From contig NC_007616.1 in the NCBI RefSeq assembly GCF_000196355.1, positions 1-17,036 on the forward strand: a DNA stretch of 17,036 nt, read 5' to 3'. The DNA comes from Nitrosospira multiformis ATCC 25196 (GTDB lineage Bacteria; Pseudomonadota; Gammaproteobacteria; Burkholderiales; Nitrosomonadaceae). Under the pieces are notes generated by a model. It saw only the letters and a list, made by a program, of their open reading frames with translations. It was not told where the DNA came from and made no database searches. The position numbers were made by a program, and so were the translations under genes. Shown one piece after another: positions 1,594 to 17,036 of this stretch. Within the stretch, counting starts at the first letter, position 1. Every line of letters begins with the position of its first letter.

Positions 1594-1652
1594 TCCAAAT
1601 AGGCCTAGGGGATAAGCTCTAAGTACGCAATAAAAAGCTCATCCTGTCCAAT

Positions 1653-2841: not shown

Positions 2842-2891
2842 CACTCCTAACCCTCCAATAAATAAGTTCAGAGTAGACGTATTTTTTTTAT

Positions 2892-2923
2892 TTGGCAACA
2901 GGAATTCTATATGTTAATATAAT
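2892..2923 (+). promoter_or_regulatory. Candidate sigma70-type promoter for the yjzC-like/DUF3892 cassette, in the divergent intergenic region shared with the XRE gene
   Basis: TTGGCA (2892-2897), a 17-nt spacer, then TAATAT (2915-2920). An overlapping TATAAT sits at 2918-2923. TTGGCAA read on the other strand gives TTGCCA as a possible -35 for the XRE gene. Motif match only. Confidence 0.3.
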
Positions 2924-2991
2924 TTGTAAGTCTATACCGAACTTTTCGGGAAGAGGCGATTCCTTCAAAACCTCTATAAGGAGAAAAAAAT

Positions 2992-3171
2992 ATGGGTATG
3001 AAACCTGGAAGTAGTACTGGTAATGGCGGTGGGATTTTTCAACAGGTAGGTCCTAAAGGAGGCAAGCAGCCTAACTTTGCGACTGTCCCAGATCACAAAC
3101 CCCTCCCCCCTACCACAAAGCCTGGCCACACCTGGGTACCGGTACAAACCACTCCAGATAGCAAGCGATAA
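2992..3171 (+). CDS. Small YjzC-like protein (59 aa), function unknown
   Basis: It falls below the 60-aa cut-off of the ORF track. AAGGAG lies 8 nt upstream of the ATG. Translation is MGMKPGSSTGNGGGIFQQVGPKGGKQPNFATVPDHKPLPPTTKPGHTWVPVQTTPDSKR. The KPG...G.F..VGPKGG...LPPT..PGH.W pattern resembles YjzC-family proteins, recalled from memory. Confidence 0.5.
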   Translation: MGMKPGSSTGNGGGIFQQVGPKGGKQPNFATVPDHKPLPPTTKPGHTWVPVQTTPDSKR

Positions 3172-3205
3172 AAGCTTCTTCCACTTTCGAAAGGAAACTA
3201 ACTAT

Positions 3206-3430
3206 ATGCCTGATGTTCAAGTTACCTGCATTATCAAACCACATCCCCAAAGCCCACACGAATATATTACCCATCTTGGAAATGGCAGGACGTGGTTATG
3301 GACGCGTGAGCAAGTTATTGACAGCATTGATGCGAAAACAAATACGTTCTACGTGCTTGATCCAAGCAATTCCAAGCGGTCTAACGTGGGAGTGGTTCGA
3401 GAAAATGGTAAAGCACCATATTTACGGTGA
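3206..3430 (+). CDS. DUF3892-like protein, 3'-truncated by IS insertion (disrupted gene)
   Basis: ATG at 3206. Translation is MPDVQVTCIIKPHPQSPHEYITHLGNGRTWLWTREQVIDSIDAKTNTFYVLDPSNSKRSNVGVVRENGKAPYLR. The TGA stop at 3428-3430 is supplied by the first three bases of the IS. The track ORF starting at 3077 is an upstream read-through extension. Confidence 0.7.
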   Translation: MPDVQVTCIIKPHPQSPHEYITHLGNGRTWLWTREQVIDSIDAKTNTFYVLDPSNSKRSNVGVVRENGKAPYLR

Positions 3431-3475
3431 CCTGCTATTGATTTTTGTAGCCAGTTTCGAAGTGGGTCTTCCGGT

Positions 3476-4297
3476 TCAAACATTCTGGATTTGCAACCTT
3501 TGCAAGCCTGCCTGGGCTGGAGTTCGGTTGGCGAGCGCAGAATGCGGGCGCTCGTTGTTATAAAACTGCCGCCATTTCTCGATCAATACTTTCGCTTCCT
3601 GCCGTGTGATGAACCATTCGCGGTTGAGGCATTCATCACGCAATTTACCGTTGAAGCTTTCCACGAATCCATTCTGCCAAGGGCTGCCAGGCTTGATAAA
3701 GGCTGGCCCCACGTTATTGTCTCGCAGCCATGTCATTACTGCGGTTGCAGTAAATTCAGCGCCATTGTCCGAGCGAATAAAGGCAGGCTTTCCATAGATA
3801 CGCATCAGCCGTGACAGGGTCAGGATGACATCCTGGTTACGCAGCGATTTGCCGACTTCGATTGCAAGGCACTCACGCGTATGCTCATCCAGCACGCAAA
3901 GCAGCTTTAGCGTCTGCCCATTGGCCAGCCGGTCATGGACGAAATCATAAGTCCAGACACTGTTTGGTTTTGTTGCTCCAGGAAGGCGTATATCCGTCCC
4001 GCAGCGGCGTTTCCTGGGCCTGCGCCTGGGCAAGCTTAGTCCCAGCTTACCCCACAAGCGCCACACACGCCCCATACTCTGATCAGTCATGACAGCAATG
4101 CGCCGATACCCAAAACGGGGATAGCGGCTTGATGCTTCAATTATCCGTGTGGCAACAGCACGATCCTTAACGGGCTGCTTGACCTCATAACTGCCAATAC
4201 GACGGCTTACCCCGACAATTCGACACGCTGATCGCTGCGATAACCCCTTGCCCGTCAAAATTCCAAGCGCTTCGCGTCTGGCTGCCGGGGTTACCAT
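3476..4297 (-). CDS. IS3-family transposase OrfB (DDE/rve integrase domain), expressed as an OrfAB fusion by -1 frameshift
   Basis: 273-aa ORF. Motifs: WTYDFV...[13 protein letters not shown] (first D), IRSDNGAEF (second D), [12 protein letters not shown] (E), and a [10 protein letters not shown] tail. Confidence 0.9.
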
Positions 4298-4557
4298 TTT
4301 TTTGTGGCAATCTCCTTCAAACCCTCGATAGCCAGCATCTGCTCAGCAACAATCTTCTTCAGCTTCGCATTCTCCGACTCCAGATCCTTTAACCGGCGCG
4401 CATCCGATACCGTCATACCTCCAAACTTCGTGCGCCACCGGAAAAATGTCTGCTCCGTAATGTTGTGCTTGCGGCATACATCTCGGATAACCACCCCATC
4501 CGCTTCACCTTCCCTCAGTATCCCAATAATCTGCTCTTCACTGAATCGCTTCTTCAT
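4291..4557 (-). CDS. IS3-family transposase OrfA (HTH)
   Basis: Translation is [16 protein letters not shown]...[34 protein letters not shown] (HTH plus leucine zipper). GGAGG lies 5 nt upstream of the ATG at 4557. The track ORF start at 4593 has no RBS. Confidence 0.85.
4297..4303 (-). other. Programmed -1 ribosomal frameshift heptamer A AAA AAA joining orfA to orfB
   Basis: Minus-strand ACA AAA AAA TGG TAA in the orfA frame. A -1 slip reads ATG GTA ACC..., which is MVTPAARRE, the start of OrfB. Confidence 0.75.
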
Positions 4558-4626
4558 TTTCGCCTCCATGTCAAAATTAACATGAAGACTCACTTAGAGG
4601 GTGGTCACAAAATTCTTAGCAGATCA

Positions 4627-4690
4627 ACGGACCTATGCAGACGGTTACTGGAATAACAATTTGTTATCGCTAGACCAGTGCCCAATTTAA
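4627..4690 (+). pseudogene. Displaced 3' end of the DUF3892 gene (duplicated ACGG plus 19 codons and stop)
   Basis: After removing the IS and one ACGG copy, the frame continues CGG ACC TAT GCA GAC GGT TAC TGG AAT AAC AAT TTG TTA TCG CTA GAC CAG TGC CCA ATT TAA. This reads ...YLRTYADGYWNNNLLSLDQCPI*, a typical DUF3892 C-terminus. Confidence 0.75.
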
Positions 4691-5107
4691 GCAATACCTA
4701 AACAACCAAAATCACCCGTCGTGTATGACCATGACTGGTGATGCGCTTTTCATGGTCTGGTCTCCTTTTAGGGCTGGGTGCTGTGCTCATGCACATGCAC
4801 CGATGCCCGTCGGCGAGACCGGGGGTAGAAGAGCGCAAGGGCGGACGGCAGGGAGGGGGATCACCCGGCCTGCACAAGCGTAGTGCGGAAGGCCGGGGAC
4901 ACCCTGCCGGCAGGCGCAGCTTTACCCTTGTGCGACGCGAGGGGCAGCGCCCCTTAGAAAGCTTTTAAGAAAACAGAAACAGCGTGGGCCGCAGGCAGAC
5001 GTTGCCATTGATATTGCAAAAGGGATCGTTACCGGATGGCCGGGACTACAGGCCCGGGACGAAGCGTCTAGAGCCCGGCCCGCTGACAGAATGTGAGCGG
5101 GCTGCCC

Positions 5108-6079
5108 CTATTTAGATGCTTTGCTATTTTCAGTCTGTTGGTACGGACCAAGAAATCGTATGCCATTGAAGTGAATCAGATGCGAAGGAGCATCTGCAAC
5201 CCATACTTCGGTCTCCCATGCGATCTCACCTAAATAACGACCCATTATGGAACGATTTGGAAAAGCAGTTACGTAGACAAGACCAGCCTTCGAACCGGCA
5301 AACAACTTGGACAGCTCTGCATGTCGCTTGCCATCGACAGGACCATGGCTGGTTACGGACTCGACGAGCAACAACCAATTGCGCTCAGTGAAGTGCAAAA
5401 CCACATCCGGCATCTTGCCATGCGAGTCCACGCTGACCCCTAACTCAGCAAGAAGTGGGGCATCAAAATACCCCCACTTCTCCCCTGTATCACCGGCATA
5501 GACAAGCACGCTACCAGGTGCAAAGCGCGGTGCGAAGTCCTCAATAATTTTCCGGATGAGCTCGCTGTGTTCACCAGGACTGAGCGTAATTTTCTTACCT
5601 GGCGCAATCTCAACCGGAATCCTATTTTGCTCTCTCTCCATTGCATACTTCTCGGCCAATGACTGTCGCTTTGAAAGATAGGTCATTAGATTGTCATGCC
5701 ACATATCGGTACCAAAGCTCCGAAGCAAAACGAGTGCCTCTGGCTCGATCTGATAAACCGCTTTTGGGCTGTTGACGGGCCGTAAAGGATTGTCTGGGTT
5801 GTAAAGCGCGATTCCCGCATCTACAAACTGGTGCATAGTCTGTCTTCTTACAGTCTCACGGGTGTTAGGAGCATAGTCCTTTCTATAGTGCTCACGCGCC
5901 CAATCCATGATCGGCGTAATACCCATAAGTGGGTTTTGTACCTCATTCCAGGACTTTTCTGGTGTTAAGTTGAGCAAGGCTAGAAGGCACAGGGCTGAGC
6001 GTTCATTTTGTTGAGCTCGGGGAAGGCCTAAGGCAAGGATGATGTTTTGAGCATCTTCGAGGTGGTTACCATTCGTCAT
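5108..6079 (-). CDS. Type II restriction endonuclease, BsuBI/PstI family
   Basis: Family-typical blocks: QQNERSALCLLAL, YAPNTRETVRRQTMHQF, NPDNPLRPVNSPK, MPDVVLHF...WLLLVESVTSHGPVDGKRHAEL, IAWETEVWVA, HLIHFNGIRFLGPY. The ATG at 6079 overlaps the methylase TGA (ATGA). The track start at 6085 is a TTG. Confidence 0.8.
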   Translation of the reverse strand: MTNGNHLEDAQNIILALGLPRAQQNERSALCLLALLNLTPEKSWNEVQNPLMGITPIMDWAREHYRKDYAPNTRETVRRQTMHQFVDAGIALYNPDNPLRPVNSPKAVYQIEPEALVLLRSFGTDMWHDNLMTYLSKRQSLAEKYAMEREQNRIPVEIAPGKKITLSPGEHSELIRKIIEDFAPRFAPGSVLVYAGDTGEKWGYFDAPLLAELGVSVDSHGKMPDVVLHFTERNWLLLVESVTSHGPVDGKRHAELSKLFAGSKAGLVYVTAFPNRSIMGRYLGEIAWETEVWVADAPSHLIHFNGIRFLGPYQQTENSKASK

Positions 6080-7590
6080 GAACAAAGCTTTTCTAGTTGT
6101 TCATCAATCTGATCCTGCGAAAGCTCAAAGCGGCCAGCAGCCCACTTCCCTAGAGAAACGAGAGCTGCCCGACTTGGATACTTCATGACCCTGAGGTCAG
6201 TTGCATTGACTTGAGTGTGTCCATTGAAGCGACGGAAGTATTCATCAACGGCAGTTGTATTAAGGAAGACAGACAGGCCTCGTGCCAATTCTGCTGGCAA
6301 TCCTTGGCGCCCCTTGTGAAAAACGTTGAGATGGTTTTCAAAGCCGATAGCCGTAACGTCACCAAAGGTGGATGGATCGACCATACTTGCGACAATACGA
6401 CGCCGCTCCTCTTTCGAGGAAAAACGACGAACAACGCAATAGAACCCATTTGGGTACAACCATCGCTCGGTGTCTTTGTTTAGTGCAATCGCATTGGGTT
6501 TCCTGAGTCCTTGTTTAGGCCACTCAGTACCTGTGCCGGAGAAATGTCCAGGGTAGAGAAGTGGAACAGAACCAGCTTCTGGCATATCAAGTAGGTAATC
6601 CTTCATGCGGAAGTCAACCACTGGACCAGTCGATACCTCGACTCCGATATCCGCTAGGCTATAGCGAACAGCGGGAGACAATTCGATTGCACTCAGGCCA
6701 ATCGATGTAGGAATGTGAATGAAGCGCTCGGGATCGTCAGGAAAGACGATACGTTCGAAGTTATGTGTGTTGGTTTCGAGGTCTGAAAACGTATCATCGG
6801 TCGATGTTGAGATAGTAACTGTGCTTTGCTTGCCTCCACGTTCTAACAGGAGAATGACGTTCTCCTGCAAAACATCATCCTCCTTAAAAGCTTTACTTCT
6901 TGATGAGAACAGATGCATATGGCGCAGAGCCGCACGGCTTAAAATGAAATCTCGAAAAGGTTTGTAATAGGGGCCATTGCAAAAGCTGCGAGGAATGATC
7001 GCTACTACTTGGCCACCAGCTGCCATCAAAGCAACAGTGAGAGCGACGAAGGCCGAGTAAAGGTTAACCACCTCAATGCCGACTGACCTCAGGGCATGGC
7101 GGTGTGAGGAGGCGCTGTTAATTTTCCTGTAAGGCGGATTGAGGATTGCGTGCGTGAAACCTGGGTAATCCTGCAGACTTTTGCTGGTAACCAGCTTAAT
7201 AAAATCTCCCTTTATCACGCGATAAGAAAAAGACTGATCAGCTGCGTACCTATGCAGTGCCGCTTCAAGATGAACACGTAACTTTGGGTCAATTTCATAG
7301 GCTGTGGCCTCGACTTGGTCGAAGGTAAACTTCCCTGCTGTCCAGCGGTCAAGGAAGGCGCATGACAGAGCCCCCACCCCCGCTCCAGCATCAAGAAGCC
7401 GACAAGTCTGCAGGGTTGACGGAGGAAACAGGCTCGCCATAAACCGAGCAACCGAGGATGGGGTCATAAATTGGCCTAACTCAGACTTGTGCTTCTGGCT
7501 TATCTTCGGCGCGATAGAGCGGCGTAGAGTATCAGCGTGGTCAAGCACTTGCAAAGTTGCCGGGACTTCGAGTGTATCAGTGTAGGCCAT
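6076..7590 (-). CDS. N6-adenine DNA methyltransferase, Eco57I/PstI-BsuBI-type (gamma-class motif order)
   Basis: 504 aa. The AdoMet motif LLDAGAGVGAL precedes the catalytic ILNPPYRKI (NPPY). The size and the partner gene match M.PstI/M.BsuBI-type enzymes. Confidence 0.85.
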   Translation of the reverse strand: MAYTDTLEVPATLQVLDHADTLRRSIAPKISQKHKSELGQFMTPSSVARFMASLFPPSTLQTCRLLDAGAGVGALSCAFLDRWTAGKFTFDQVEATAYEIDPKLRVHLEAALHRYAADQSFSYRVIKGDFIKLVTSKSLQDYPGFTHAILNPPYRKINSASSHRHALRSVGIEVVNLYSAFVALTVALMAAGGQVVAIIPRSFCNGPYYKPFRDFILSRAALRHMHLFSSRSKAFKEDDVLQENVILLLERGGKQSTVTISTSTDDTFSDLETNTHNFERIVFPDDPERFIHIPTSIGLSAIELSPAVRYSLADIGVEVSTGPVVDFRMKDYLLDMPEAGSVPLLYPGHFSGTGTEWPKQGLRKPNAIALNKDTERWLYPNGFYCVVRRFSSKEERRRIVASMVDPSTFGDVTAIGFENHLNVFHKGRQGLPAELARGLSVFLNTTAVDEYFRRFNGHTQVNATDLRVMKYPSRAALVSLGKWAAGRFELSQDQIDEQLEKLCS

Positions 7591-7747
7591 TGGGTCTCGA
7601 CAGGCAGGTGTTCAGCGTTCAGCTCTTGGGCTGATAGCTTTGAAGTAGCATATTTGAGGCATAGGGTCAAAACGACACTAGCTAGCGTAATAGCTTATGT
7701 TCGGTTGACAAAAACGTTAACAGAACCTGGATGATTCTTAAAAGCTA

Positions 7748-8062
7748 TTACTCGCCCCGATAGGGCTCGGGAACCCCATATTTTGCGCAAAGATCATTGA
7801 TTGCTTCCCCCAAAAGTTCCTTGGTTAGTTTTCCCTCGTTATTCGGATGAGCTTGTACGAGCAGTAATGCGCGGCGTACCTGGGGAGAAAAATGCGCCCC
7901 TATCATCACCGTTTTATCAGCGGCCTTTTTATTAGCTACAGGAGTAACAGGCTTAGCCTCAGACTGATGAGGGCTTACATGCTGAATTGGTTCCGGCTGC
8001 TTTTGCACCTGACCGGCTGCCATGGCTTTAAGCCCGGCGGCTAAGGGACTAGGCTTTTTCAT
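7748..8062 (-). CDS. Small partition partner of ParA (ParG/RHH-like centromere-binding protein, putative)
   Basis: 104-aa ORF immediately downstream of parA, overlapping it by 14 nt, with AAGGA 8 nt upstream. It has a basic, disordered N-terminus and a structured C-terminal 50 aa (VMIGAHFSPQVRRALLLVQAH...LLGEAINDLCAKYG). The assignment rests mainly on position. Confidence 0.5.
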   Translation of the reverse strand: MKKPSPLAAGLKAMAAGQVQKQPEPIQHVSPHQSEAKPVTPVANKKAADKTVMIGAHFSPQVRRALLLVQAHPNNEGKLTKELLGEAINDLCAKYGVPEPYRGE

Positions 8063-8699
8063 GATGTATATCCTTATATTTGTATAGCGCTATATTTATA
8101 TATTTATATAGCTCACTGAGTTCAAGAGCTGCTTTACCGCCGGGATCGTATTCCAGGGCAGTTTGACCCAGATTGGTGGCATCTCCATAAGCTGTTCTTT
8201 GATAGAGTACGACGGGACAAACCTTAAGCCCCATTCCTTCTATCGCTTCCATCGTATCTAGATGGCGTCTTCCTTGCACAGGGGCGGCATTTATCACGAC
8301 CAGAGCAGTGGGATTACCAGCAAGGGTTAGGATGTCTTTAACATTTAACAGCGTTTCAATGTCGAAGAGCTGAGGCCGGATGGGTAGCAGAACAATATCT
8401 GCAACTTTTGCGGCCTCTATAGTGGCTTCGGTGCTTTTTCCTGCTGTGTCGATTATGACCAACTCAGCGCCTTGCTCTTTTGCCCCGGTTAATACGTTAC
8501 GTAGGCGTGAAACTTGGCAAGATACTACTGCCGGATGTTCAGATTCTCTCCGATCTCCCCAGTTAGCCGCTGTAGTTTGGGGATCAAGATCGATTACGGC
8601 AACTGACTTGCCGTCCAGAACACCTGCAACAGCAAGCCCTAATGCGGTTGTTGTTTTCCCGTTACCGCCCTTTTGTCCGATGATGGCTAAGGTTTTCAT
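8049..8699 (-). CDS. parA: ParA/Soj-family partition ATPase (small, type Ib-like)
   Basis: Translation begins MKTLAIIGQKGGNGKTTTALGLA, with the deviant Walker A KGGxGKT. It also has VIDLDPQ and a Walker B-like LVIIDTAG. Confidence 0.9.
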   Translation of the reverse strand: MKTLAIIGQKGGNGKTTTALGLAVAGVLDGKSVAVIDLDPQTTAANWGDRRESEHPAVVSCQVSRLRNVLTGAKEQGAELVIIDTAGKSTEATIEAAKVADIVLLPIRPQLFDIETLLNVKDILTLAGNPTALVVINAAPVQGRRHLDTMEAIEGMGLKVCPVVLYQRTAYGDATNLGQTALEYDPGGKAALELSELYKYINIALYKYKDIHHEKA

Positions 8700-8706
8700 T
8701 ATATAG

Positions 8707-8794
8707 TCCTATATTTGTATAGTCCTATCCGAATATATTCCTATATAAGTATATTTCGATAGGGCTAGATTTATATATTACGATAGGAATATAT
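8707..8794. repeat. AT-rich TCCTAT/ATAGGA repeat array upstream of parA (candidate par operator/centromere)
   Basis: TCCTAT recurs at 8707, 8723 and 8739 with a 16-bp period. Inverted ATAGG(G/A) copies sit at 8759 and 8783. A 12-bp inverted repeat pairs ATATATTCCTAT (8733-8744) with ATAGGAATATAT (8783-8794). Confidence 0.45.
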
Positions 8795-8865
8795 CAGAGT
8801 TCCTTGAATGTCTATCCTGTTAAACGCAAAAAATCCACGGAATCGCAATCTCGACCACGTTTAAA

Positions 8866-8930
8866 TCACCCTTGTTTAATATCCTAGCGGGTGAATTTGC
8901 CCGGAGGGCAAAGAGGGGCGGCAATGAGCC
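8866..8930 (+). repeat. Left arm of a long-range inverted repeat pair (partner at 12635-12687)
   Basis: TCACCCTTGTTTAATATCCTAGCGGG...GAGGGGCGGCAATGAGCC. The first 26 nt match the partner at 23/26 and the last 18 nt at 18/18. This arm carries an extra internal hairpin, TTTGCCC-gga-GGGCAAA. Confidence 0.8.
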
Positions 8931-8983
8931 CCTTGGATGATGTTTTGTGAGCGGAGCGAACTCATAGTCTATTGTCATAACTT

Positions 8984-8992
8984 GTTATCCAC
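8984..8992 (+). promoter_or_regulatory. Consensus DnaA box TTATCCACA. A second 8/9 box, TCATCCACA, lies at 9088-9096.
   Basis: Exact 9-mer match, located between the AT-rich region and the iterons. This is the expected architecture of an iteron-type oriV. Confidence 0.5.
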
Positions 8993-9098
8993 AGTCGCGA
9001 GTTTCATCCCTGTGTGTGTTAAATATAGAGTTAAGTAGTGTTAAGGGCGGGAAAACTCTTGTAACTATTTGCAATAGCTCAGCAATTTCATCCACAGC

Positions 9099-9250
9099 GT
9101 CAACAGAACCACGAAAAACTGTCAGCACAACCACGAAAAACCGTCAACGAAACCACGAAAAGTCCCTTGCGTCATTGAAACCCCGAAGCTATGATGGGCG
9201 TCAACGAAACCACGAATCGATTATGTCTGTCAACGAAACCACGAATATTA
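9099..9250 (+). repeat. oriV iterons: five 22-bp direct repeats with core GTCAaCgaAACCACGAA, plus one degenerate copy
   Basis: Copies: 9099 GTCAACAGAACCACGAAAAACT; 9121 GTCAGCACAACCACGAAAAACC; 9143 GTCAACGAAACCACGAAAAGTC; 9200 GTCAACGAAACCACGAATCGAT; 9229 GTCAACGAAACCACGAATATTA. The degenerate copy at 9171 is GTCATTGAAACCCCGAAGCT. Confidence 0.8.
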
Positions 9251-10275
9251 AAAAGAATGAGCGATCGGTCTTGTTGCCGGAACGCCATCCCAATCACGAG
9301 CTGTTCATCTGCGATGTGCTTGAGGCCATCCCCAAGGATGACTTGGCAAGCATGGAACACCCCGTATTCTCCCTGGCAACCAAACCAGATACACGGACCC
9401 TGATTTATGAGCACAGGGATGTAAAAATCCAGATCACGCCAAGCGTTAAGGGGTTGGCGACGATTTTCGATAAGGATTTATTGATTTTCTGCATCTCCCA
9501 AATGATCGCAAAAAAGAATAGGGGAGAGCCTCTATCGCAAAATGTACGCCTCCATGCATACGATCTTTTGATATGGACGAACCGGGAAACAAGCGGCGAT
9601 GCTTACCGGCGCCTCATAGAAGCATTTGAGCGGCTACGCGGGACCACAATCGTGACAAACATCAAAGCAGACGGTGAGGAGATAACCACAGGTTTTGGCC
9701 TTATCGATAGTTTCAAGGTTGTTCGTCATACCGCCACCGGGCGCATGAGTGAGCTGGAAGTCCGGATCTCGGACTGGATGTTTAAAATCATTCAGGGTTC
9801 ACAGGTGCTGACGCTGAGCCGGGATTATTTCCGGCTTAGAAAACCCATCGAACGGCGGATTTACGAGATAGCACGTAAGCATTGCGGGGAGCAGGACGAA
9901 TGGCGGATTTCTATCGAACTGCTCCAGAAAAAAACTGGAGCCAGCAGTCACGAACGGGCGTTTAAAGCCATGGTGCGGGAGCTGGTCAAATGCGACCATT
10001 TGCCCGACTACAGCGTCACATTGGAAGACGATATGGTAATTTTTTATAACCGGGCGGGCTTATCGGAGAAAATTCCTCTTACCGCGTTTCCTCAGCTCAA
10101 TGCTGAAACTTACAACGATGCTCGTACCGTGGCCCCAGGTTATGACGTCTATTATCTCGAACAAGAATGGCGGGACATGTGGGTTGATACCGGAATGCCG
10201 CTACTCCACAATCCCGACAAAGCTTTTATAGCTTTTTGCAAATCCCGGGCAAAACGTCGCCCAATGGGTCGGTAA
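9223..10275 (+). CDS. repA: Plasmid replication initiator RepA (replication initiator protein A type)
   Basis: 350 aa from the first ATG. Typical blocks: LLPERHPNHELFICDVLEAIPKDDLASMEHPVFSLATKPD and LSRDYFRLRKPIERRIYEIARKHCG. The track ORF start at 9016 is a non-ATG extension that merely translates the iterons. Confidence 0.85.
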   Translation: MSVNETTNIKKNERSVLLPERHPNHELFICDVLEAIPKDDLASMEHPVFSLATKPDTRTLIYEHRDVKIQITPSVKGLATIFDKDLLIFCISQMIAKKNRGEPLSQNVRLHAYDLLIWTNRETSGDAYRRLIEAFERLRGTTIVTNIKADGEEITTGFGLIDSFKVVRHTATGRMSELEVRISDWMFKIIQGSQVLTLSRDYFRLRKPIERRIYEIARKHCGEQDEWRISIELLQKKTGASSHERAFKAMVRELVKCDHLPDYSVTLEDDMVIFYNRAGLSEKIPLTAFPQLNAETYNDARTVAPGYDVYYLEQEWRDMWVDTGMPLLHNPDKAFIAFCKSRAKRRPMGR

Positions 10276-10305
10276 TTCTCTTTTTAAGATCGAAGGGGTG
10301 CTGCT

Positions 10306-11979
10306 TTATCTGCCGCGATCTCGATATGGCTCAGGACGAGCTTGTCCATGCGCCAATTTCTCTTCCGTAGAATTATTAGACTCGTAGCTCTCGAACAGAC
10401 TTGCCCGGTTGTTGTACCTATCTGCAAGACTGACGCTTTTATCCTCTTTTTGCCTCTCCGCTTGAGTTGCACGAAGCTTCTTGTAGGAATCCCAAGCGGT
10501 CCGGCGGTCGGCATTTAAAGCCGCCCATTCTTTCCGCAATTCGCCTGTCTCTTCTGCCTGCTGCCTTTTTAAATCCTGCCGCTCCGTCTTGTGACGAGCT
10601 GCAAGCAAGGTGCGAGCTTGCTTATCGGTTTCCTTAGCCGCTTCTATTTTCTGGACGGCATGTTTCTTGGCAAGATCGCGAGCCTCTGCATACTTAGTGC
10701 GCAACTCATCCAGTTCCGTGTTTTGCTTGGCCCAGAGCCTTTGGAAAGCAGGCAAATTACGTTCGTCCAGCTTCTTGAAGAAAGCTTCTTTTTCGCTGTT
10801 CAAGCGCTTTGCGAACATTGCAGCACGCGCATCTTTAGCCACAAGCGCAGTAAAAAACCGGGATAGATGGCCACGATGATGGTTCCCGTGTTCGGAGAGG
10901 GGAGTCTTGATCGTCGCTTCAAGCGTAGCCAGAAGTACGGCCCATCCCCCGGTGCGGTTCATTTTATAAAATTCCCGCCTTTTTTCTTTCTGTGTTGCCA
11001 TAAAGAAGGAGACTTCCGGCACATTCTCTTCTTTAAGACGGGCTCTTAAGGCGCGCATTTGGTCTTCGTGCCTTTTCTTTAATTTGGCCCTGTCGGCCTG
11101 GTATTTCTGCCAGGAATACTCGCCCGCTTTTGAAGCCTTGTTAAAACCCTGCCGAATTTTGAACGCCTGGCACTGCTTATCCCAAAGAGCGGCCCGTTCG
11201 TTTGCCTGGCGAGCTTTAATTTCCTCCCATTGAGCCGAATGGCGCACCGCGTTATCGCGGCCCTTCCTGGCCAGATTTTTGATCCGCTCGGCGAACTCCG
11301 CCTTAATATCCAGGTAACGTTTACTCTTAGGATGGGTTGCTCCTGCCGCCGCCTCCCAATCCGCACGAGCCTTGCTGTTGGCCGTGCCTTTGTGCTGCCG
11401 CGCTTCTTCCGCCATACGACGGTATTCAGCCTTCTTTTCCGGGTCTTTCTCGTATTTCGCGGCACGCTCGGGGCTGTGATGTTCCATGCCCCGTGCCTTG
11501 TCGTATTCATGGCCCCAGGAGTGCAGGATTTTATGGTCGTCCTTGGGATTGTGCGAGATTCCTGTCACCGGATTAACGCGGTTGACGATGATATGCAAAT
11601 GCATGTGCGCCTTGTCGCCGTGCGCGGCAAACACCGCTTCATGCTCCCCATATCCAAGCTTTTCCAGTATGGCAGTCCCGGCCTCCATCATTTCGGCCTG
11701 GGTGGGCTTCTCGCCTGGCACCCAGGACAGGGAGAGGTGATAAACCGGCGGGCCGGGTTTGCGGCCGGTCGCCTTGATGCCTGCCGCTTCTTTCAGCTCG
11801 GCGGCATGCTGCGCGGTATAGGCCATGACCTTGGCCGCCTTCTCCGGGTCGTCCGTGCGAAGGTTGCGCGTTTCCGTAAACAGAACCCGCTCGGCTGTTT
11901 TGGCTCCGTCCGGGTCGTGAATGATGTAGGCCACCGCCCCCTTGAAGCTGCGGCCCTTTTTCGCGGCGTTCGGCGTCAT
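10306..11979 (-). CDS. mobA: Relaxase/mobilisation nuclease (VirD2/TraI-RP4-like N-terminal domain) with a long K/E/A-rich C-terminal region
   Basis: The N-terminus FKGAVAYIIHD provides a candidate catalytic Tyr. The His triad is HGDKAHMHLHIIVNRVNP (HxDxxxxHxH). The start overlaps the mobC stop (ATGA). Confidence 0.85.
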   Translation of the reverse strand: MTPNAAKKGRSFKGAVAYIIHDPDGAKTAERVLFTETRNLRTDDPEKAAKVMAYTAQHAAELKEAAGIKATGRKPGPPVYHLSLSWVPGEKPTQAEMMEAGTAILEKLGYGEHEAVFAAHGDKAHMHLHIIVNRVNPVTGISHNPKDDHKILHSWGHEYDKARGMEHHSPERAAKYEKDPEKKAEYRRMAEEARQHKGTANSKARADWEAAAGATHPKSKRYLDIKAEFAERIKNLARKGRDNAVRHSAQWEEIKARQANERAALWDKQCQAFKIRQGFNKASKAGEYSWQKYQADRAKLKKRHEDQMRALRARLKEENVPEVSFFMATQKEKRREFYKMNRTGGWAVLLATLEATIKTPLSEHGNHHRGHLSRFFTALVAKDARAAMFAKRLNSEKEAFFKKLDERNLPAFQRLWAKQNTELDELRTKYAEARDLAKKHAVQKIEAAKETDKQARTLLAARHKTERQDLKRQQAEETGELRKEWAALNADRRTAWDSYKKLRATQAERQKEDKSVSLADRYNNRASLFESYESNNSTEEKLAHGQARPEPYRDRGR

Positions 11980-12308
11980 TCCACGTCCTGCAATCGGTCC
12001 AGCAACTGATTGAGCCGGGCAAGAGTCTCGCTCAGCTCGTGCGGGCTATGGCCGAGGCCACTGTTCAGGGCACGGGCAATCTGGTTGAGATTGACGCCCG
12101 CCCGGTTCACAGCCAGCACCAGGGCAGGGTCAGCCCGGCGCGGAGCAGCGGCAAGCTTGCCCCCAAGGGCGCGGCGGCGGGCGTAGTCGGTGGGGGTGAG
12201 GCCCGAAGCGGCAGCGCGGGCCTCAATGGTGGCCCGCTCGTCTGGGAGCAGGCGAAGATTCAGCCGCTCGCTCCGGGACTCCGGTTGCTGTTTCCTGGGT
12301 CGCGCCAT
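11976..12308 (-). CDS. mobC: MobC-family relaxosome accessory protein (RHH)
   Basis: Translation from the ATG at 12308 is MARPRKQQPESRSERLNLRLLPDERATIEARAAASGLTPTDYARRRALG...AVNRAGVNLNQIARALN. The 69 codons further upstream in the track ORF are GC-rich read-through. Confidence 0.8.
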   Translation of the reverse strand: MARPRKQQPESRSERLNLRLLPDERATIEARAAASGLTPTDYARRRALGGKLAAAPRRADPALVLAVNRAGVNLNQIARALNSGLGHSPHELSETLARLNQLLDRLQDVE

Positions 12309-12382
12309 AAGGACTGGACTGGATAAGTTATTCAGGACGGTACGCAATGGTGACGCAATTAGCCAAATCCGGCTTTTCCGGT

Positions 12383-12728
12383 GCCTCCTCGTTTCGGGGA
12401 GGAGGGGGAATACCGAATGGCCAGGCAAGGCCGTTGCAGGGGGTCCAAAGGGGGAGGGAATGCTCCCCCTTGCAAGCGTTTTTGGGTACCAAAAACATAG
12501 CTTGCTACCCTGCACCTACAATTGTACCACTCAACTCAGGCGCTAGGTCAACTGCACCAAAGGGAGTTATGCACGAGGTTTTTCAGGCGCGACGCGTCGG
12601 GAGTAGCTGACGCCCTTCGGGCGTCAGTCGGAGAGGCTCATTGCCGCCCCTCCGACACCTCCCTGCTAGGATACAAAACAAGGGTGAGCGGCAGTTGATC
12701 GCAGGCGAAGCGGCCTGTATCCTGATAC
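12383..12728. other. Candidate oriT region upstream of mobC (several inverted repeats plus nick-core-like motifs). The exact nic site is not determinable.
   Basis: Hairpins: 12383-12405 (CCTCCTC/GAGGAGG); 12448-12471 (AAGGGGGAG/CTCCCCCTT); 12478-12496 (GTTTTTGG/CCAAAAAC); 12607-12627 (CTGACGCCC-ttc-GGGCGTCAG). There is also a 10-bp palindrome CGACGCGTCG at 12590-12599 and GTATCCTGATAC at 12717-12728, which contains TATCCTG. Confidence 0.3.
12635..12687 (-). repeat. Right arm of the long-range inverted repeat pair (partner at 8866-8930)
   Basis: The reverse complement reads TCACCCTTGTTTTGTATCCTAGCAGGGAGGTGTCGGAGGGGCGGCAATGAGCC. Confidence 0.8.
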
Positions 12729-12777
12729 GGCGGTACAGCAGGGATGCGATGACCGCACAAGGGTGAGAAATCACCGC

Positions 12778-12811
12778 AAAGGCCAGCCCTCAAAAGCTGG
12801 CCTTTGTTTTT
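12778..12811 (+). terminator. Rho-independent terminator-like hairpin, plus-strand oriented
   Basis: AAAGGCCAGC-cctcaaaa-GCTGGCCTTT, a 10-bp stem, followed by GTTTTT. On the minus strand no T-run follows the stem. Confidence 0.5.
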
Positions 12812-12869
12812 ACCTAGACAATCCGGCTCCCGTTACAATCTGTACTCGCTCATCTTTTCAGGGGGGAGT

Positions 12870-13343
12870 ATGGCAACTACCGATAGCGGAGACTTGCCAA
12901 AAGGCCAGGCAAATGAAGGAAATCGAGGGAAACCATCGGAACCGGGCCAATATAATCCGCATCAAGGCAGTGACCTGGCTGTTGCCCAGACTCTTCTTCC
13001 AACAGGCCCGACGGCAACCCATCGAAATGACGAACAAAAATCAAAAATACCGGAGGGAGTCCGAAAGGACGGCCAAAACCTGACCCTTGAAATGAGAACT
13101 CCTATGGGGTCGGATGTCCGAAGGCAAGCCGCATACTCACAAGCTGCGAAGGATTACAATGCCGCCAACAAAAAACGGGTAGAAAAATATTTCGGTGACA
13201 GTAATAAAGGACCCCTGGTAACATCAAGAGATATAAAGGATAAAAGCGTTATTGAACGACGGGAGCCAACTAGGGGATCGCTTTCAAACGAGCTATCCAA
13301 AGCGAGCGGTTTCGAAACAGGGAGTAAGGATTTAGAAAGATAG
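12870..13343 (+). CDS. Hypothetical protein, 157 aa, highly polar and probably disordered, with no recognisable domain
   Basis: ATG at 12870, preceded by AGGGGGGAG. It is the first gene of the plus-strand operon. The sequence MATTDSGDLPKGQANEGNRGKPSEPGQ... is rich in K/E/G/S/N/Q. Its coding status is supported only by length, RBS and operon context. Confidence 0.55.
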   Translation: MATTDSGDLPKGQANEGNRGKPSEPGQYNPHQGSDLAVAQTLLPTGPTATHRNDEQKSKIPEGVRKDGQNLTLEMRTPMGSDVRRQAAYSQAAKDYNAANKKRVEKYFGDSNKGPLVTSRDIKDKSVIERREPTRGSLSNELSKASGFETGSKDLER

Positions 13344-13349
13344 CCCGCC

Positions 13350-13661
13350 ATGAAATACAGCCTTCCTCACGATCAAATGCATTCCAGGGTCATCACTGCC
13401 CCTGACGGTATAGATCATTTAATAACCATGGGCGGTTGGTACTGGAATTCTCTCGACTGGATGCATAACGAAACCGATTGGAAAAATATCGATTTTATTG
13501 AGCTGGCTTGGAAAACTGCCAAGCAAATGGAAAACGACGGAACAATGGAAAACCCGGGCAATTTACCGGCGGAATTCCAATTGGCTTTCAAATATCACAT
13601 ATGGTTCCGCATGAAGGATTTGATTAACAAAGAAGATGGCATAGTTAACGATAATATTTAA
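13350..13661 (+). CDS. Hypothetical protein, 103 aa, Trp-rich
   Basis: ATG ORF lying 6 nt after the previous stop. The segment HLITMGGWYWNSLDWMHNETDW faintly recalls the ExxFWxxL block of RHH_4-type proteins. That resemblance is weak. Confidence 0.55.
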   Translation: MKYSLPHDQMHSRVITAPDGIDHLITMGGWYWNSLDWMHNETDWKNIDFIELAWKTAKQMENDGTMENPGNLPAEFQLAFKYHIWFRMKDLINKEDGIVNDNI

Positions 13662-13677
13662 TCTGCCGGGACATTAA

Positions 13678-15663
13678 GTGGGTAACGACATTCTGGCTTT
13701 GGGAGAAAGCCAGCCAAAATACAATCGCCGAGCATTGGCCTCGGCCCAATTTATTCCCCAGGAATATCTAGACCGACAGGGATACCGCAAAGGCGATTTC
13801 TGGCTTGGCCGAACCCTCAACGGACGGCCTTTCGGTTGGAACGAGGAAATGAATCTGCTGACCTGTGCGGGACCAGGGGCAGGGAAGGGCGTTTCGACAG
13901 TCGTACCGAACCTGCTGGAATTTCCTGGGAGCGCAGTGGTAGTGGATCCAAAGGGAGAGCTGGCCAGCATGACTGCCGCTTTCCGTCGCGACGTGCTTGG
14001 ACAGAAGGTCATCGTCCTGGATCCTGCGCGAACTGCTAAGGTAAGCGAGGATCTGCGCGGCACTTACAACCCTTTCGACGAACTGGATGCGGACGATCCC
14101 TTTGTTACGACCGCCGCCCAGGTTATTGCCTCCGGGATCGTCGTTCCCAATCCCAAGGCAAAAGAACCGTTCTGGGACGACAACGCTCTCGATTTCATTC
14201 AGTCGTGCATCCTCTATATGGTGCGGCATTATCCGCCTAATTTACGCACCCTTATGAAGCTGCGGGAGACGGTTTCTATGGGGGACAGCGACCTCTTCGA
14301 TGCATATGTACGGCGCAAACAAGAAGAGGATCCAGATTTTATGGGATCCGAAAGTGATGCCTTCGGGCTGTTCCTGAAAGAAATGTTTAACACCCCGGAC
14401 TTTGGCGGCGTGATACGTGAGACTGCCGCCAAAATCGGGCGAATGGGCGAAAACACGAAAGGCAGTGTACTTTCTACAGCGGCCACACATCTGGACTTCG
14501 TAAAATCCCCGGAACTTTGGGACGTGCTGCAATCGAACCCGGACCCGTCTCGAACCTTCCGGCTGCGGGAGCTGAGACGTAATGACCGGCCCCTCACGGT
14601 CTATCTATGCCTTCCTGTAGACATGATCCCGCGTCAAGGAAGATGGTTTCGGATGATCATATCCCGCATCATCCAATCCATCGAACGCAGCGAATTCGAT
14701 AAAAAACGAGATCACCCTGTTTTGATGATGATCGACGAGTTTTTTCAGCTCGGTCCGATTCCTTCTATTACTAACACCCTCACATATTCACGAAGCTTTG
14801 GGCTGCGGCTGTGGCTAATTGTGCAAGATTTGAATCAGCTTAAAACCAATTACCCGGACGCCTGGGAAACCATTCTCGGTTCCTGCGGAATAAAGCAGTT
14901 TTTCGGAGTAAACGATCTCGTTACCGCTAAATATGTTTCGGAATTGATTGGGGAAGAAGAGATAGATATACCCTCGATCTCGCTTACCAAAACCTCTTCC
15001 GGGACGGAGAGCAGAAACTCCTCGCAAACGCACAGCCAAGGGATGACCAGTACCGCCGGAAATAACTGGTCAAGCAGTACAGGAAGGTCTGTATCCTTTT
15101 CGCGCACGAATAGCACAAACCATAACATTACGACCGGGCGCGGGATTTCCAATAATCAGGCTGCCAGCAGCGGGGTAAGCGAAAGTTGGGGAAGCGGTGC
15201 CAATAACGGGGAAACTATTACAAATAGTCAACAAACTTCCCAGAACTCGGGACGCTCTGCGCACGCAACTACGGGACAAAATTACGGCGTTAGCAGCTCC
15301 CTTGGCCAGTCCTCCTCCCTATCTGGCTCGGCAGGCCAAAGCGCCTCTTCTGGCATGACGTTTGGCTCAAGTATCTCGGACACCCGGGGCGGATCCATCT
15401 CGACATCAGAAAGCCGAAATATCTCCAACACGGCGGGAGAAGGTTCCTCTGTTTCAACCGGGATAAATTACGCTTTTTCTGTTTCCAAACAGAAAAGACG
15501 GCTCCTGCGCCCCGAAGATGTTCTGGTGAGCTTCACCAAAAAGAACCTGGTGCAACTTACGCATATTCGAGATCAGGGGGGCATGATGCTATTCCGTACC
15601 CCATTCTATGCCGATCCGTATTTCCGATTCCTTCTGACGGAAAAAACAAAAAATGACACATAA
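13678..15663 (+). CDS. Type IV coupling protein (VirD4/TraG/TraD family ATPase) lacking the N-terminal transmembrane domain, with a large Ser-rich insertion
   Basis: GTG start. Walker A is CAGPGAGKGVSTVVPNLL, followed by SAVVVDPKGE. Walker B is HPVLMMIDEFFQLG. It also has SRSFGLRLWLIVQDLNQLKTNY and a C-terminal RRLLRPEDV...FRTPFYADPYF. Only about 20 aa precede the soluble-domain homology, with no hydrophobic helix. Confidence 0.85.
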   Translation: MGNDILALGESQPKYNRRALASAQFIPQEYLDRQGYRKGDFWLGRTLNGRPFGWNEEMNLLTCAGPGAGKGVSTVVPNLLEFPGSAVVVDPKGELASMTAAFRRDVLGQKVIVLDPARTAKVSEDLRGTYNPFDELDADDPFVTTAAQVIASGIVVPNPKAKEPFWDDNALDFIQSCILYMVRHYPPNLRTLMKLRETVSMGDSDLFDAYVRRKQEEDPDFMGSESDAFGLFLKEMFNTPDFGGVIRETAAKIGRMGENTKGSVLSTAATHLDFVKSPELWDVLQSNPDPSRTFRLRELRRNDRPLTVYLCLPVDMIPRQGRWFRMIISRIIQSIERSEFDKKRDHPVLMMIDEFFQLGPIPSITNTLTYSRSFGLRLWLIVQDLNQLKTNYPDAWETILGSCGIKQFFGVNDLVTAKYVSELIGEEEIDIPSISLTKTSSGTESRNSSQTHSQGMTSTAGNNWSSSTGRSVSFSRTNSTNHNITTGRGISNNQAASSGVSESWGSGANNGETITNSQQTSQNSGRSAHATTGQNYGVSSSLGQSSSLSGSAGQSASSGMTFGSSISDTRGGSISTSESRNISNTAGEGSSVSTGINYAFSVSKQKRRLLRPEDVLVSFTKKNLVQLTHIRDQGGMMLFRTPFYADPYFRFLLTEKTKNDT

Positions 15664-16426
15664 CCCTCCACCAGAAGGGGCCAGATGGGATATCCCGGAC
15701 TGGAGCCCCGTTCAGGAAGCCGATTCTGATAAGCACAAGTCCTATCTTGACCAGCTAGACGAGTTACAGGACCTGCGCCGACAGCTCGCTGACATGAAGA
15801 ACCGTCCCCCCGAGCAACCTGCGCAACCTGAGCAAAAGGACAATTTCGAAACAAGAAGCGCCGCAATCAAATCTCTTATCATCAAGCTTGACACCATAGC
15901 ACGCCGTAATCCGCCTGCTATCCTAGACGATGAAGATATAAATGGCAGGTTTGATGCTATCGAGGCATTCTTGAAGAAATACGGTCTTCTCAATATCGGA
16001 ACCCAACGATCTTACAATTCTCCATTTCTCACATTAGGGCAAGCTGCCCGATCAGATCTGGAAATAAATCTGGCCGAGCTTGAGGTAGCACGCACTCATT
16101 TCCTTCGATGGCACGGCTCGATGGCAAAAAATCTGCCCCCTCCGCCAAAAACTGAACCCAGCGGTATTATTAACCGCATGATTGAGCTATATCACTATCC
16201 AAGAAAAGAGGATCCCGAGATTGCGCATATCAAAGCCTACTTAGGGACAGAGTATATTAAATTTAATCCCCAGGGAGTGGCATCTGAAACCGACAAGAAT
16301 TCATTTAAAACAATAGCTTTAAAAAAACTCCCATTTGAGATGCGGGTATTGAAATACTGTTTGGAGCTTTGGGTTATTGCTCTAATTGGAATGCTAATAG
16401 GCGGTTTAATACGCCTCTTCATATGA
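15653..16426 (+). CDS. Hypothetical tail-anchored membrane protein, 257 aa
   Basis: The ATG overlaps the coupling-protein stop by 11 nt. The N-terminus is Pro/Gln/Glu-rich with a predicted coiled segment (LDQLDELQDLRRQLADMK). A single hydrophobic helix sits at the extreme C-terminus (LELWVIALIGMLIGGLIRLFI). Confidence 0.6.
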   Translation: MTHNPPPEGARWDIPDWSPVQEADSDKHKSYLDQLDELQDLRRQLADMKNRPPEQPAQPEQKDNFETRSAAIKSLIIKLDTIARRNPPAILDDEDINGRFDAIEAFLKKYGLLNIGTQRSYNSPFLTLGQAARSDLEINLAELEVARTHFLRWHGSMAKNLPPPPKTEPSGIINRMIELYHYPRKEDPEIAHIKAYLGTEYIKFNPQGVASETDKNSFKTIALKKLPFEMRVLKYCLELWVIALIGMLIGGLIRLFI

Positions 16427-16441
16427 TAGAGACAAAAAAAA

Positions 16442-16705
16442 TTGAACGTATTTTCGGTCATTGCAACCACTCTTAAAGTAGCGAGATTTCTCACCGTTAA
16501 GGCGGGCTTATGCGAAAACTGCAATATTCGTAAACCGATATGTCAATGCAAAAATTGCGACGCTAATATTTGCGAAAAATGTGTCGAATGGATTTATTGG
16601 AGCAGGCGTCAGTATAACGAGAGGTCGCGGAAAGCATATGGACCCAATGCCCACCAAACTGATTATATAGAGTGTCCAATATGCAACAAACCATGGCAAG
16701 AATAA
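16442..16705 (+). CDS. Putative small Cys-rich (zinc-ribbon/RING-like) protein, 87 aa, with a TTG start
   Basis: Nine Cys residues arranged CxxC...CxC..C....CxxC...(30 aa)...CxxC: CENC, CQC, C, CEKC, CPIC. There is no in-frame ATG anywhere in the ORF and only a weak RBS, so the coding call is tentative. Confidence 0.4.
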   Translation: MNVFSVIATTLKVARFLTVKAGLCENCNIRKPICQCKNCDANICEKCVEWIYWSRRQYNERSRKAYGPNAHQTDYIECPICNKPWQE

Positions 16706-16722
16706 TGGAGAGGACGCTACCC

Positions 16723-17036
16723 CTAAAAGCTATATAGCTTGTTTGCCTTCAGCGCACGACGCAGGGTGCCTCGATCAACGTTCAATAGCCCTGCCATACC
16801 AGAAACCGTTTCCCGCCCCTCCCGCACCATCTGCGCTGCATGATTGATCTGTTCTTGGCTCAGCTTCCCGGGACGACCTACATGCTTTCCCCGCCGCCTG
16901 GCCGCCTGCATCCCTGCCTTTGAACGCTCCGATATCAATGACCGCTCGAACTCGGCCAGAGCGCCCATGATGTGAAAAACCAGTTTCCCTCCGGCAGTCG
17001 TTGTGTCGATCCCGTCTGAGAGGCTTTCAAACCCAG
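16723..17036 (-). CDS. Serine recombinase, C-terminal part (E-helix plus HTH DNA-binding domain); the 5' part lies at 256..1
   Basis: Minus-strand reading from the window end gives (2 leftover nt) GFESLSDGIDTTTAGGKLVFHIMGALAEFERSLISERSKAGMQAARRRGKHVGRPGKLSQEQINHAAQMVREGRETVSGMAGLLNVDRGTLRRALKANKLYSF*. Confidence 0.9.
   Translation of the reverse strand, partial: GFESLSDGIDTTTAGGKLVFHIMGALAEFERSLISERSKAGMQAARRRGKHVGRPGKLSQEQINHAAQMVREGRETVSGMAGLLNVDRGTLRRALKANKLYSF

Follow-up and report, generated by a model that had tools for sequence, protein, structure and literature searches.

Type IV coupling proteins (T4CPs) that have no membrane domain and rely instead on a separate small membrane protein form a recognized class, an example being TraJ/TraI of pIP501, and TraG-TraJ pairs of the R27 type have been described as well (PMC7434980, PMC7431656). 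The possession of an own T4CP and relaxase but no mating-pore genes, as in the MOBC1, CloDF13-like plasmids, is a rare arrangement (PMC7434980, PMC7431656), and the membrane domain of MobB from CloDF13 is present and essential for function (PMC7431656). T4CP auxiliary proteins ('D4Aux') form type IV coupling complexes, such as DotL-DotM-DotN-IcmSW of Legionella, and how T4CPs make contact with type IV secretion systems (T4SSs) has yet to be defined according to a review of the latter (PMC12857230). Here, we analyze a stretch of 17,036 nucleotides from Nitrosospira multiformis ATCC 25196 (NC_007616.1, positions 1 to 17,036, referred to as the window), in which a VirD4/TraG-type T4CP without an N-terminal membrane domain is encoded between the genes for two small proteins, ORF1 and ORF2, and that for a tail-anchored protein, ORF4. 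Together they form a conserved module of four parts, in which ORF1, ORF2 and the soluble T4CP are joined by between one and three membrane proteins of the ORF4 family.

By analogy, this module matches recognized coupling concepts without recognizable homology to any of them, and its architecture differs. As in pIP501, where a T4CP without a membrane domain is encoded next to a small membrane protein postulated to localize it (PMC7434980, PMC7431656), the T4CP gene in the window adjoins that of a small membrane protein, here ORF4; in contrast, the pIP501 and R27 systems are self-transmissible with their own T4SS whereas the window is a proteobacterial mobilizable plasmid. Compared with TraI/TraJ, ORF4 is tail-anchored, has a conserved N-terminal peptide, and in some loci is present in more than one copy or has a periplasmic domain, and it is set apart from them by the absence of matches in family libraries (Pfam, NCBIfam, PADLOC and PHROGs), without direct sequence comparison. 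With the CloDF13-like plasmids the window shares a relaxase and an own T4CP in the absence of mating-pore genes, but MobB has a membrane domain, the CloDF13 relaxase is of the MOBC type rather than the PF03432 MobA/VirD2 type seen here, and CloDF13 has no equivalents of ORF1, ORF2 or ORF4. In Ti plasmids (traCDG/traAFB) and R388 (trwA-trwB), small accessory genes followed by the T4CP gene are transcribed away from the origin of transfer (oriT), opposite the relaxase operon. The module resembles this layout in that two small genes precede the T4CP gene and diverge from the relaxase operon; unlike the T4CP of the module, Ti TraG and R388 TrwB have N-terminal membrane domains and a T4SS encoded on the plasmid, and ORF1 and ORF2 have no Pfam match at E<=0.1. 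Finally, the Dot/Icm coupling complexes also combine a T4CP with dedicated, partly membrane-borne auxiliaries that recruit substrates (PMC12857230), but in the libraries searched ORF1, ORF2 and ORF4 match neither a Dot/Icm family nor any other known one, the module is far smaller, its presumed substrate is DNA instead of effectors, and a complex of its products is hypothetical. A preliminary description of this DNA had called the partners of the T4CP unexplained; this does not fully apply, because both the pairing of a membrane-domain-less T4CP with a membrane protein and T4CP auxiliaries are already recognized (PMC7434980, PMC7431656, PMC12857230).

The four-gene module and its conservation

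The preliminary description had proposed a five-gene operon. Five ORFs do lie on the + strand, with gaps of 6 nt and 16 nt between the first three, an overlap of 11 nt between the third and the fourth and a gap of 15 nt ahead of the fifth, which ends 17 nt before the stop of the convergent resolvase gene (16723), all as described. It also holds that only the ATPase, i.e. the T4CP, belongs to a recognizable family while ORF1, ORF2, ORF4 and ORF5 give nothing significant in the four libraries named above, and that ORF2 has 6 Trp among 103 residues, ORF4 a hydrophobic helix at its extreme C-terminus and ORF5 9 Cys. Nevertheless, five genes overstates the unit, which comprises four, since ORF5 is missing from every relative and is not called in the source annotations.

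The T4CP (13678-15663, + strand) is a protein of 661 aa with a GTG start and matches PF02534 at 1.5e-60 and PF12696 at 5.2e-26, its matches in NCBIfam being strong too. Its Walker A motif (GPGAGKG) occupies residues 64-70, and this motif and the DEF motif are invariant across six homologues; in the alignment of these, the protein begins at a conserved cytoplasmic segment. In agreement with the earlier claim that it has no transmembrane domain, no 19-residue segment reaches a hydrophobicity of 1.8. A match to PF10412 (TrwB_AAD_bind; 6.8e-18) is confined to residues 340-448 and bears on whether the nucleotide-binding domain contains an inserted all-alpha domain. The last ~50 conserved residues are preceded by an insert of low complexity that is enriched in Ser, Thr, Gly and Asn, spans ~150 residues (~455-610, about nt 15040-15508) and includes an 80-aa segment in which S, T, G, N and Q make up 74%. 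The presence of this insert is conserved and its sequence is not: it measures 60-190 residues in the clade in which the T4CP and ORF4 are separate proteins (the split clade), and inserts of this size also occur in Sphingobium CAP-1 p2, in Labrenzia p1BIR and in many relatives with a C-terminal anchor.

To place the module, ~12 related loci (labeled with the prefix L) were collected from the contigs of ORF4 and ORF2 homologues and by a genome-wide scan using the T4CP alignment. Close homologues are few, with 2 for ORF4 and 6 for ORF2 among 5.8 billion proteins. Plasmid relatives are the circular L005 (12.3 kb) and L094 (14.6 kb), the contigs L008, L009, L096 and L097, and a 16.7-kb JGI contig, and chromosomal copies (L014-L016) come from a Stappiaceae metagenome-assembled genome (MAG), Rhodobacteraceae HLUCCA12 and Parasphingorhabdus. 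The T4CP is 80% identical to that of L005, 68-69% to that of L008 and 60-61% to that of L009. Hidden Markov models (HMMs) built from the first four plasmids placed members of the ORF1 and ORF2 families immediately upstream of the T4CP gene in almost all related loci; in L016 and L097, the gene at the ORF2 position did not reach the HMM threshold, and its assignment rests on visual inspection. An ORF4-family gene, recognized by its N-terminal motif and transmembrane helix, lies directly downstream of the T4CP gene in all of them.

The order ORF1-ORF2-T4CP-ORF4 is found on RPA replicons (window, L005, L009 and L097), on a TrfA replicon (L008), on a Rep3 replicon (L094) and in chromosomal islands (L014, L015 and L016). 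The module has been transferred among three or more replicon types; as these types differ, it is a mobile cassette. Loss or shuffling of the partners in related plasmids had been named beforehand among the outcomes that would speak against a functional unit; ORF1, ORF2 and ORF4 are neither lost nor shuffled, whether on plasmids of at least three replicon types or in chromosomal islands. Of the four orphan partners counted in the preliminary description, these three are thus syntenically conserved with the T4CP while ORF5 is a plasmid-specific insertion. A MobC-relaxase pair accompanies the module in eight plasmid contigs that cover three replicon types, usually in divergent orientation across an oriT-like region. 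Relaxase and MobC genes are located divergently upstream in the window, L005, L008, L016, L094 and L097, the JGI contig has the same layout, and in the window a conserved oriT-like block lies between them and the module. Between the window and L005, identity decreases from 92% for Rep, 82% for MobC and 80% for the T4CP to 55% for ORF2, 50% for ORF4, 48% for the relaxase and 30% for ORF1. A near-identity DNA search of PLSDB with the operon gave no match, and protein-versus-DNA searches of plasmids with ORF2, ORF4 and ORF5 gave nothing meaningful.

Several loci have features of their own. L099 (Stappiaceae MAG JBDWFY010000011) is a ~7-kb island with a Phd antitoxin gene and three ORF4 paralogues; in L100 (Rhodobacteraceae HLUCCA12 LJSV01000013), another T4CP-like gene, shorter than the first, is found close to the module, as are genes for a DUF87 ATPase and for ArdC; and no T4SS is recognizable within 10 kb of either. 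In L098 (Rhodobacteraceae bacterium CCMM004, RZWH01000017), positions 4984-6426 hold a decayed module made up of a C-terminal T4CP remnant, a truncated ORF4-like ORF, an intact ORF4-like gene and a resolvase gene.

ORF1 (12870-13343, + strand, ATG start) is a small charged protein of 157 aa in which a variable low-complexity N-terminal half is followed by a conserved charged core (...EM.GP.G..VR....A...KD......R....). Members of its family are encoded immediately upstream of the ORF2 and T4CP genes in L005, L008, L009, L014, L015, L016, L094, L096 and L097, with HMM E-values of 1e-10 to 1e-65. No Pfam match was found for ten family members at E<=1, and none in the PDB for the ORF1 profile. ORF2 (13350-13661, + strand, 103 aa) is a Trp-rich compact domain with the motifs PDG....T..GWYWN.LDW and, at the C-terminus, G..NDN. 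AlphaFold2 predicts it with a pLDDT of 89 and a pTM of 0.81 as a beta-hairpin followed by three helices, with a strand at residues 22-28 and helices at residues 29-41 and 46-63. An exhaustive profile search of 1.84 billion representatives recovered 43 clusters for the ORF2 family, and these are without exception small stand-alone proteins. A Foldseek search with the ORF2 model returned nothing better than E=0.17 in the PDB or BFVD and no ribbon-helix-helix (RHH) structure. The only hints, both weak, concern the RHH_4 family: one of 35 family members matched RHH_4 (PF13467) at a non-significant E=0.049, and the family profile gave a plausible, RHH_4-like alignment to PDB entry 3kk4, also non-significantly (E=1.8). 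A TraC/TraD-type Pfam match was absent from the window proteins (E<=0.1), from ten ORF1-family members (E<=1) and from 35 ORF2-family members (E<=0.1).

ORF5 (16442-16705, + strand), the plasmid-specific extra, would encode an 87-aa, zinc-finger-like protein from a TTG start. The four CxxC pairs in it point to a genuine zinc-finger gene, and that it might be a true fifth subunit of the system is favored by its location on the same strand 15 nt past ORF4, by the improbability of four such pairs arising by chance in 87 residues, and by a weak RING-like match (E=0.1), which is its best in the PDB. We nonetheless consider this very improbable. No relative bearing the module has ORF5, and only 6-12 nt separate the stops of ORF4 and the resolvase gene in L005 and the JGI contig; homologues were found neither in the fetched loci nor in the plasmid database; and the TTG is the only possible start, with a weak ribosome-binding site. 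Moreover, ORF5 has a GC content of 41.6%, lower than that of its neighbors, and resides in an AT-richer ~300-nt segment without a counterpart in the close relatives that were compared. ORF5 is a strain-specific accessory gene, or possibly no gene, and unrelated to the module.

Proposed anchoring of the coupling protein

ORF4 (15653-16426, + strand, 257 aa) has the N-terminal peptide PPPEGARWDIPDW (nt 15665-15703), which is followed by a helical body that varies and, at the extreme C-terminus, by a single transmembrane helix (residues 232-257, nt 16346-16423). A profile search recovered 19 family members among 5.8 billion proteins, and a search of PDB sequences with the ORF4 profile gave only noise. 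In an alignment of 11 members, the only conserved feature is the N-terminal peptide, which reads PP(R)EGARW(D/K)IPDW or, in the L014 type, PPREGARWGDDP; a body of variable sequence, helical or coiled-coil, comes next and leads to the transmembrane helix. The members from L009, L016 and L097 have an additional domain of ~170-220 residues past the membrane helix. The number of paralogues per locus ranges from one to three, with two in L008 and L096 and three in L014. The start of ORF4 overlaps the T4CP stop by 11 nt in the window, where no strong ribosome-binding site is present, and overlaps of -8 to -23 nt were observed in nine of ten intact modules. The overlapping start together with the lack of a strong ribosome-binding site suggests that ORF4 is translationally coupled to the T4CP.

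Among the 80 best genome relatives of the T4CP, most also have no N-terminal membrane domain. The group without this domain is large and mostly uncharacterized, and it spans Alphaproteobacteria, Acidobacteriota, Planctomycetota and Verrucomicrobiota. In 15 of the fetched loci (L020, L022, L026, L028-L032, L034-L036, L039, L042, L044 and L049), the T4CP has no N-terminal membrane domain but a fused C-terminal extension with a coiled coil and one or more transmembrane helices. In the extension, an FDPHPDH motif precedes the coiled coil, which some proteins follow with a beta-rich segment or WD40-like repeats before the transmembrane helices, and T4CPs of this type are found in Acidobacteriota, Planctomycetota, Hyphomicrobiales and other genomes. 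That 15 loci carry the anchor in fused form shows that attachment on the C-terminal side is a design that works among these T4CPs. The fused-anchor proteins resemble the T4CP of the module in having no N-terminal membrane domain and, in many cases, an S/T-rich insert, and their anchor is likewise on the C-terminal side, after a coiled coil; they differ in that the anchor is fused instead of being a separate protein, in that the extension has no PPEGARW motif, and in that some have an extra beta-rich segment. We found no description of this fused architecture in the T4CP reviews and literature that we searched, and the five-class T4CP scheme has no C-terminally anchored class (PMC7434980, PMC7431656). 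A classification based on domains would file such proteins as membrane-domain-less.

Two candidate links between fused extensions and ORF4 were rejected. The sequence GARLTIAQW, which had suggested that the extensions might be homologues of ORF4, belongs to the beta-rich 'W.V..G..V..GQ' segment, and we take the likeness to be due to chance. A 1290-aa Labrenzia T4CP that had been considered as a natural T4CP-ORF4 fusion has neither a PPEGARW motif nor a transmembrane segment. This protein is encoded in L002 (Labrenzia sp. PHM005 p1BIR, 133-5232) and has an S/T-rich insert and a C-terminal extension of ~590 residues; downstream of the T4CP in the same locus, a 134-aa ORF (4828-5232) that ends in ...GYANDNLY resembles the ORF2 family by eye.

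The proposed coupling complex and competing explanations

The preliminary description had noted the absence of a secretion channel, and this is true of the whole replicon. NCBI contig FNVK01000040.1 (assembly GCA_900108135.1) is the same plasmid and reads unbroken from the window end into the window start; because it joins the two, the window is a complete circular plasmid of ~17 kb. Pfam and gene scans of the complete circle detected no T4SS genes and hence no VirB4 or other cognate channel gene, and no T4SS gene is present in the complete circular relatives L005 and L094 either. We infer that the region is the coupling half of the mobilization region of a small mobilizable plasmid without a secretion channel; the relaxase and MobC are the other half.

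In our preferred model, to which we assign a probability of roughly 0.6, the module is a minimal type IV coupling complex for mobilization via a helper T4SS, with ORF4 as a membrane tether and ORF1 and ORF2 as auxiliaries. The relaxase and MobC would nick the plasmid at oriT, and the membrane-domain-less T4CP would recognize the resulting relaxosome with the possible help of ORF1 and ORF2 as small auxiliaries, a role that we presume to parallel, in analogy and not in homology, that of the Ti plasmid proteins TraC/TraD or of R388 TrwA, which stimulates the ATPase of TrwB. ORF4, translationally coupled to the T4CP, would keep it at the inner membrane, with the cytoplasmic N-terminal peptide PPEGARWDIPDW (PPEGARW...) docked on the ATPase, the C-terminal helix in the membrane and, in some relatives, an added periplasmic domain. 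The tethered complex would then engage the T4SS of a co-resident conjugative element, and the fast-evolving, sometimes duplicated body of ORF4 together with its membrane part might set which helper channel can be used. The earlier suggestion that the partners are specificity adaptors for hijacking a helper channel fits this putative role, for ORF4 only. It is tempting to extend this idea to a soluble VirD4-like motor that docks via the invariant PPEGARW on interchangeable ORF4 adaptors, whose membrane or periplasmic parts pick a foreign T4SS; ORF1 and ORF2 would be new auxiliary subunits, and together with the fused-anchor clade such proteins would constitute a class of C-terminally anchored T4CPs. 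We regard this wider version as speculative, though well within the possible.

Several observations weigh against the coupling model. No helper T4SS is known for the host, and ORF1, ORF2 and ORF4 fit no known T4CP auxiliary or relaxosome family in the libraries searched. ORF2 was also considered as a ribbon-helix-helix relative of the plasmid's own NikA/MobC or ParG-like protein, but the profile comparison with these turned out negative. The AlphaFold2 model of ORF4 is poor (pLDDT 43.5) and consists of helices and the C-terminal membrane helix only. In a rough neighbor-joining tree without support values, the split clade is monophyletic, canonical N-terminally anchored forms are interspersed, and the fused-anchor clade is not sister to the split clade; the fused-anchor proteins therefore support a tether by analogy only, and gene fission is not demonstrated. 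Lastly, the intact chromosomal copies L099 and L100 have no Pfam-recognizable relaxase or MobC within 10 kb, which indicates that the module is not strictly tied to a relaxase.

These chromosomal copies, which also lack a recognizable T4SS over the same distance, lead to an alternative, akin to the non-conjugative ATPase system raised in the preliminary description, in which the module is a relaxase-independent ATPase system for defense, exclusion or fertility inhibition and the ORF4-tethered T4CP-like motor acts on the DNA or the machinery of conjugative elements, either incoming or co-resident. Such a system would be consistent with the three ORF4 paralogues in one chromosomal copy, with the richness of the host plasmids in defense genes (restriction-modification pairs, Abi, PD-T4-5 and CapP-like genes) and with a weak match of the T4CP to mad8 in PADLOC (7.8e-8). 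However, the match to the conjugative T4CP families is ~50 orders of magnitude stronger than that to mad8, no other PADLOC match occurs in the operon, so that it does not qualify as a MADS system, and it contains no other component of a known defense system. Defense cargo is common on small plasmids whatever their mobility genes, and the chromosomal copies could be integrated plasmids in decay, a process that is directly visible in L098. Given, in addition, the association of the module with MobC-relaxase pairs in eight plasmid contigs, usually divergent across a conserved oriT-like region, we hold a relaxase-independent function to be quite unlikely; should the module work in this way, it would represent a new use of a T4CP-like motor.

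A different division of labor is suggested by the position of ORF1 and ORF2 across the oriT-like region from the relaxase operon, on what we take to be the leading side, as in RP4-type systems. The two could be leading-region establishment or anti-defense proteins, whose genes would be the first to reach a recipient, that merely share the T4CP transcript, and ORF4 could be a membrane protein of the exclusion or immunity type. In line with this, both are small orphans without a DNA-transfer family signature, and ORF1 evolves fast, at 30% identity compared with 80% for the T4CP. Independent cargo would be expected to shuffle, though, and the order of ORF1 and ORF2 and their tight spacing with the T4CP gene are fixed on every replicon, even in islands without a relaxase or oriT nearby; neither protein matches PADLOC or PHROGs, and the overlap of ORF4 with the T4CP stop favors its co-production with the ATPase. 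Altogether, we find this explanation unlikely and prefer the coupling model.

How the T4CP of a mobilizable plasmid engages a foreign channel is poorly understood. In the module, the ATPase and its putative membrane-contacting part are separate polypeptides that seem to be joined by a 12-residue peptide, with a membrane part that varies and is sometimes duplicated; such a natural system would make helper specificity and the function of the T4CP membrane domain cleanly accessible to genetics. The analysis also adds three very rare families, ORF1, ORF2 and ORF4, to the conjugation-associated gene set.

Relaxosome genes, candidate oriT and the rest of the replicon

The relaxase (10306-11979, - strand, 557 aa) has a MobA/VirD2-type nuclease domain (PF03432 at 1.6e-25) and is MOBP/Q-like; its best NCBIfam model is TraI_MobP_relax (TraI/MobA(P)), which it matches at 1e-29, under the cut-off of that model. 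The MobC/NikA-like relaxosome accessory protein (11976-12308, - strand) is 110 aa long from an ATG at 12308 and matches PF21983 at 4.3e-16 and PF05713 at 1.3e-7. The source annotation and all relatives give a length of 110-111 aa, and a 179-aa reading from a GTG start in a mechanical ORF list is therefore an over-extension.

Within this over-long reading lies a 50-nt block (12463-12512) that is 100% identical to L005, against only ~80% identity elsewhere between mobC and ORF1. It contains the inverted repeat GTTTTTGG(G)TACCAAAAAC, i.e. the palindrome GTTTTTGGGTACCAAAAAC, ahead of ATAGCTTGCTACCCTG; the repeat is followed by ...GCTACCCTG. We presume this to be comparable to the repeat-plus-nick-site arrangement of RP4/RSF1010-type origins, and the block is a candidate for the oriT core and its likely nick region. 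A TATCCTG sequence at 12718 that had been considered as a nick site was dropped as it is not kept in relatives, the block at 12463-12512 being the better oriT candidate.

A terminator-like hairpin with a T-run (12776-12812, + strand) is located directly upstream of the ORF1 promoter region. A plus-strand terminator had been placed at 12778-12811; our scan locates a stem at 12776-12807 with 12 pairs (7 G-C), followed by TTTTT. The hairpin is 92.7% conserved in L005, where one stem change converts a G-C to a G-T pair, and no + strand gene is present upstream of it. Its role could be to insulate the promoter of the operon, to terminate a small RNA that comes from the oriT region or to contribute to the oriT structure; in Rfam, the operon region gave a single sub-threshold chance match and nothing else.

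On its other side, the module is followed by the C-terminal part of a serine resolvase gene (16723-17036, - strand; PF00239 and PF02796), which crosses the circular junction into window positions 1-256. A resolvase gene is the constant downstream neighbor, coming after the module in L004, L005, L094, L096 and L098 and farther downstream in L008 and L097. The window further encodes, besides the relaxase and NikA/MobC accessory protein, an RPA-type Rep and a ParA/RHH partition pair, and its cargo comprises an IS3 element, a PstI-type restriction-modification pair, a PD-T4-5/Abi_2 gene and a CapP/CapH-like pair. The defense gene of the PD-T4-5/Abi_2 type (PADLOC 3.1e-83) adjoins the genes for a CapP-like IrrE/M78 peptidase (5.2e-58) and an HTH_3 regulator (673-2898); we assume that this peptidase-regulator pair corresponds to a CBASS regulator, here located beside an Abi-type gene. 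The IS3-family element, with HTH_Tnp_1 and rve ORFs, occupies 3476-4593 (- strand), the region in which FNVK01000040.1 breaks, and this break probably accounts for the difference between the 16.0 kb of that contig and the 17.0 kb of the window. Finally, the Rep ORF (9016-10275, + strand) encodes 419 aa from a GTG and is thereby ~69 residues longer than its 92%-identical L005 homologue (350 aa, MSVNET...); the true start of Rep is probably an internal ATG near 9223.

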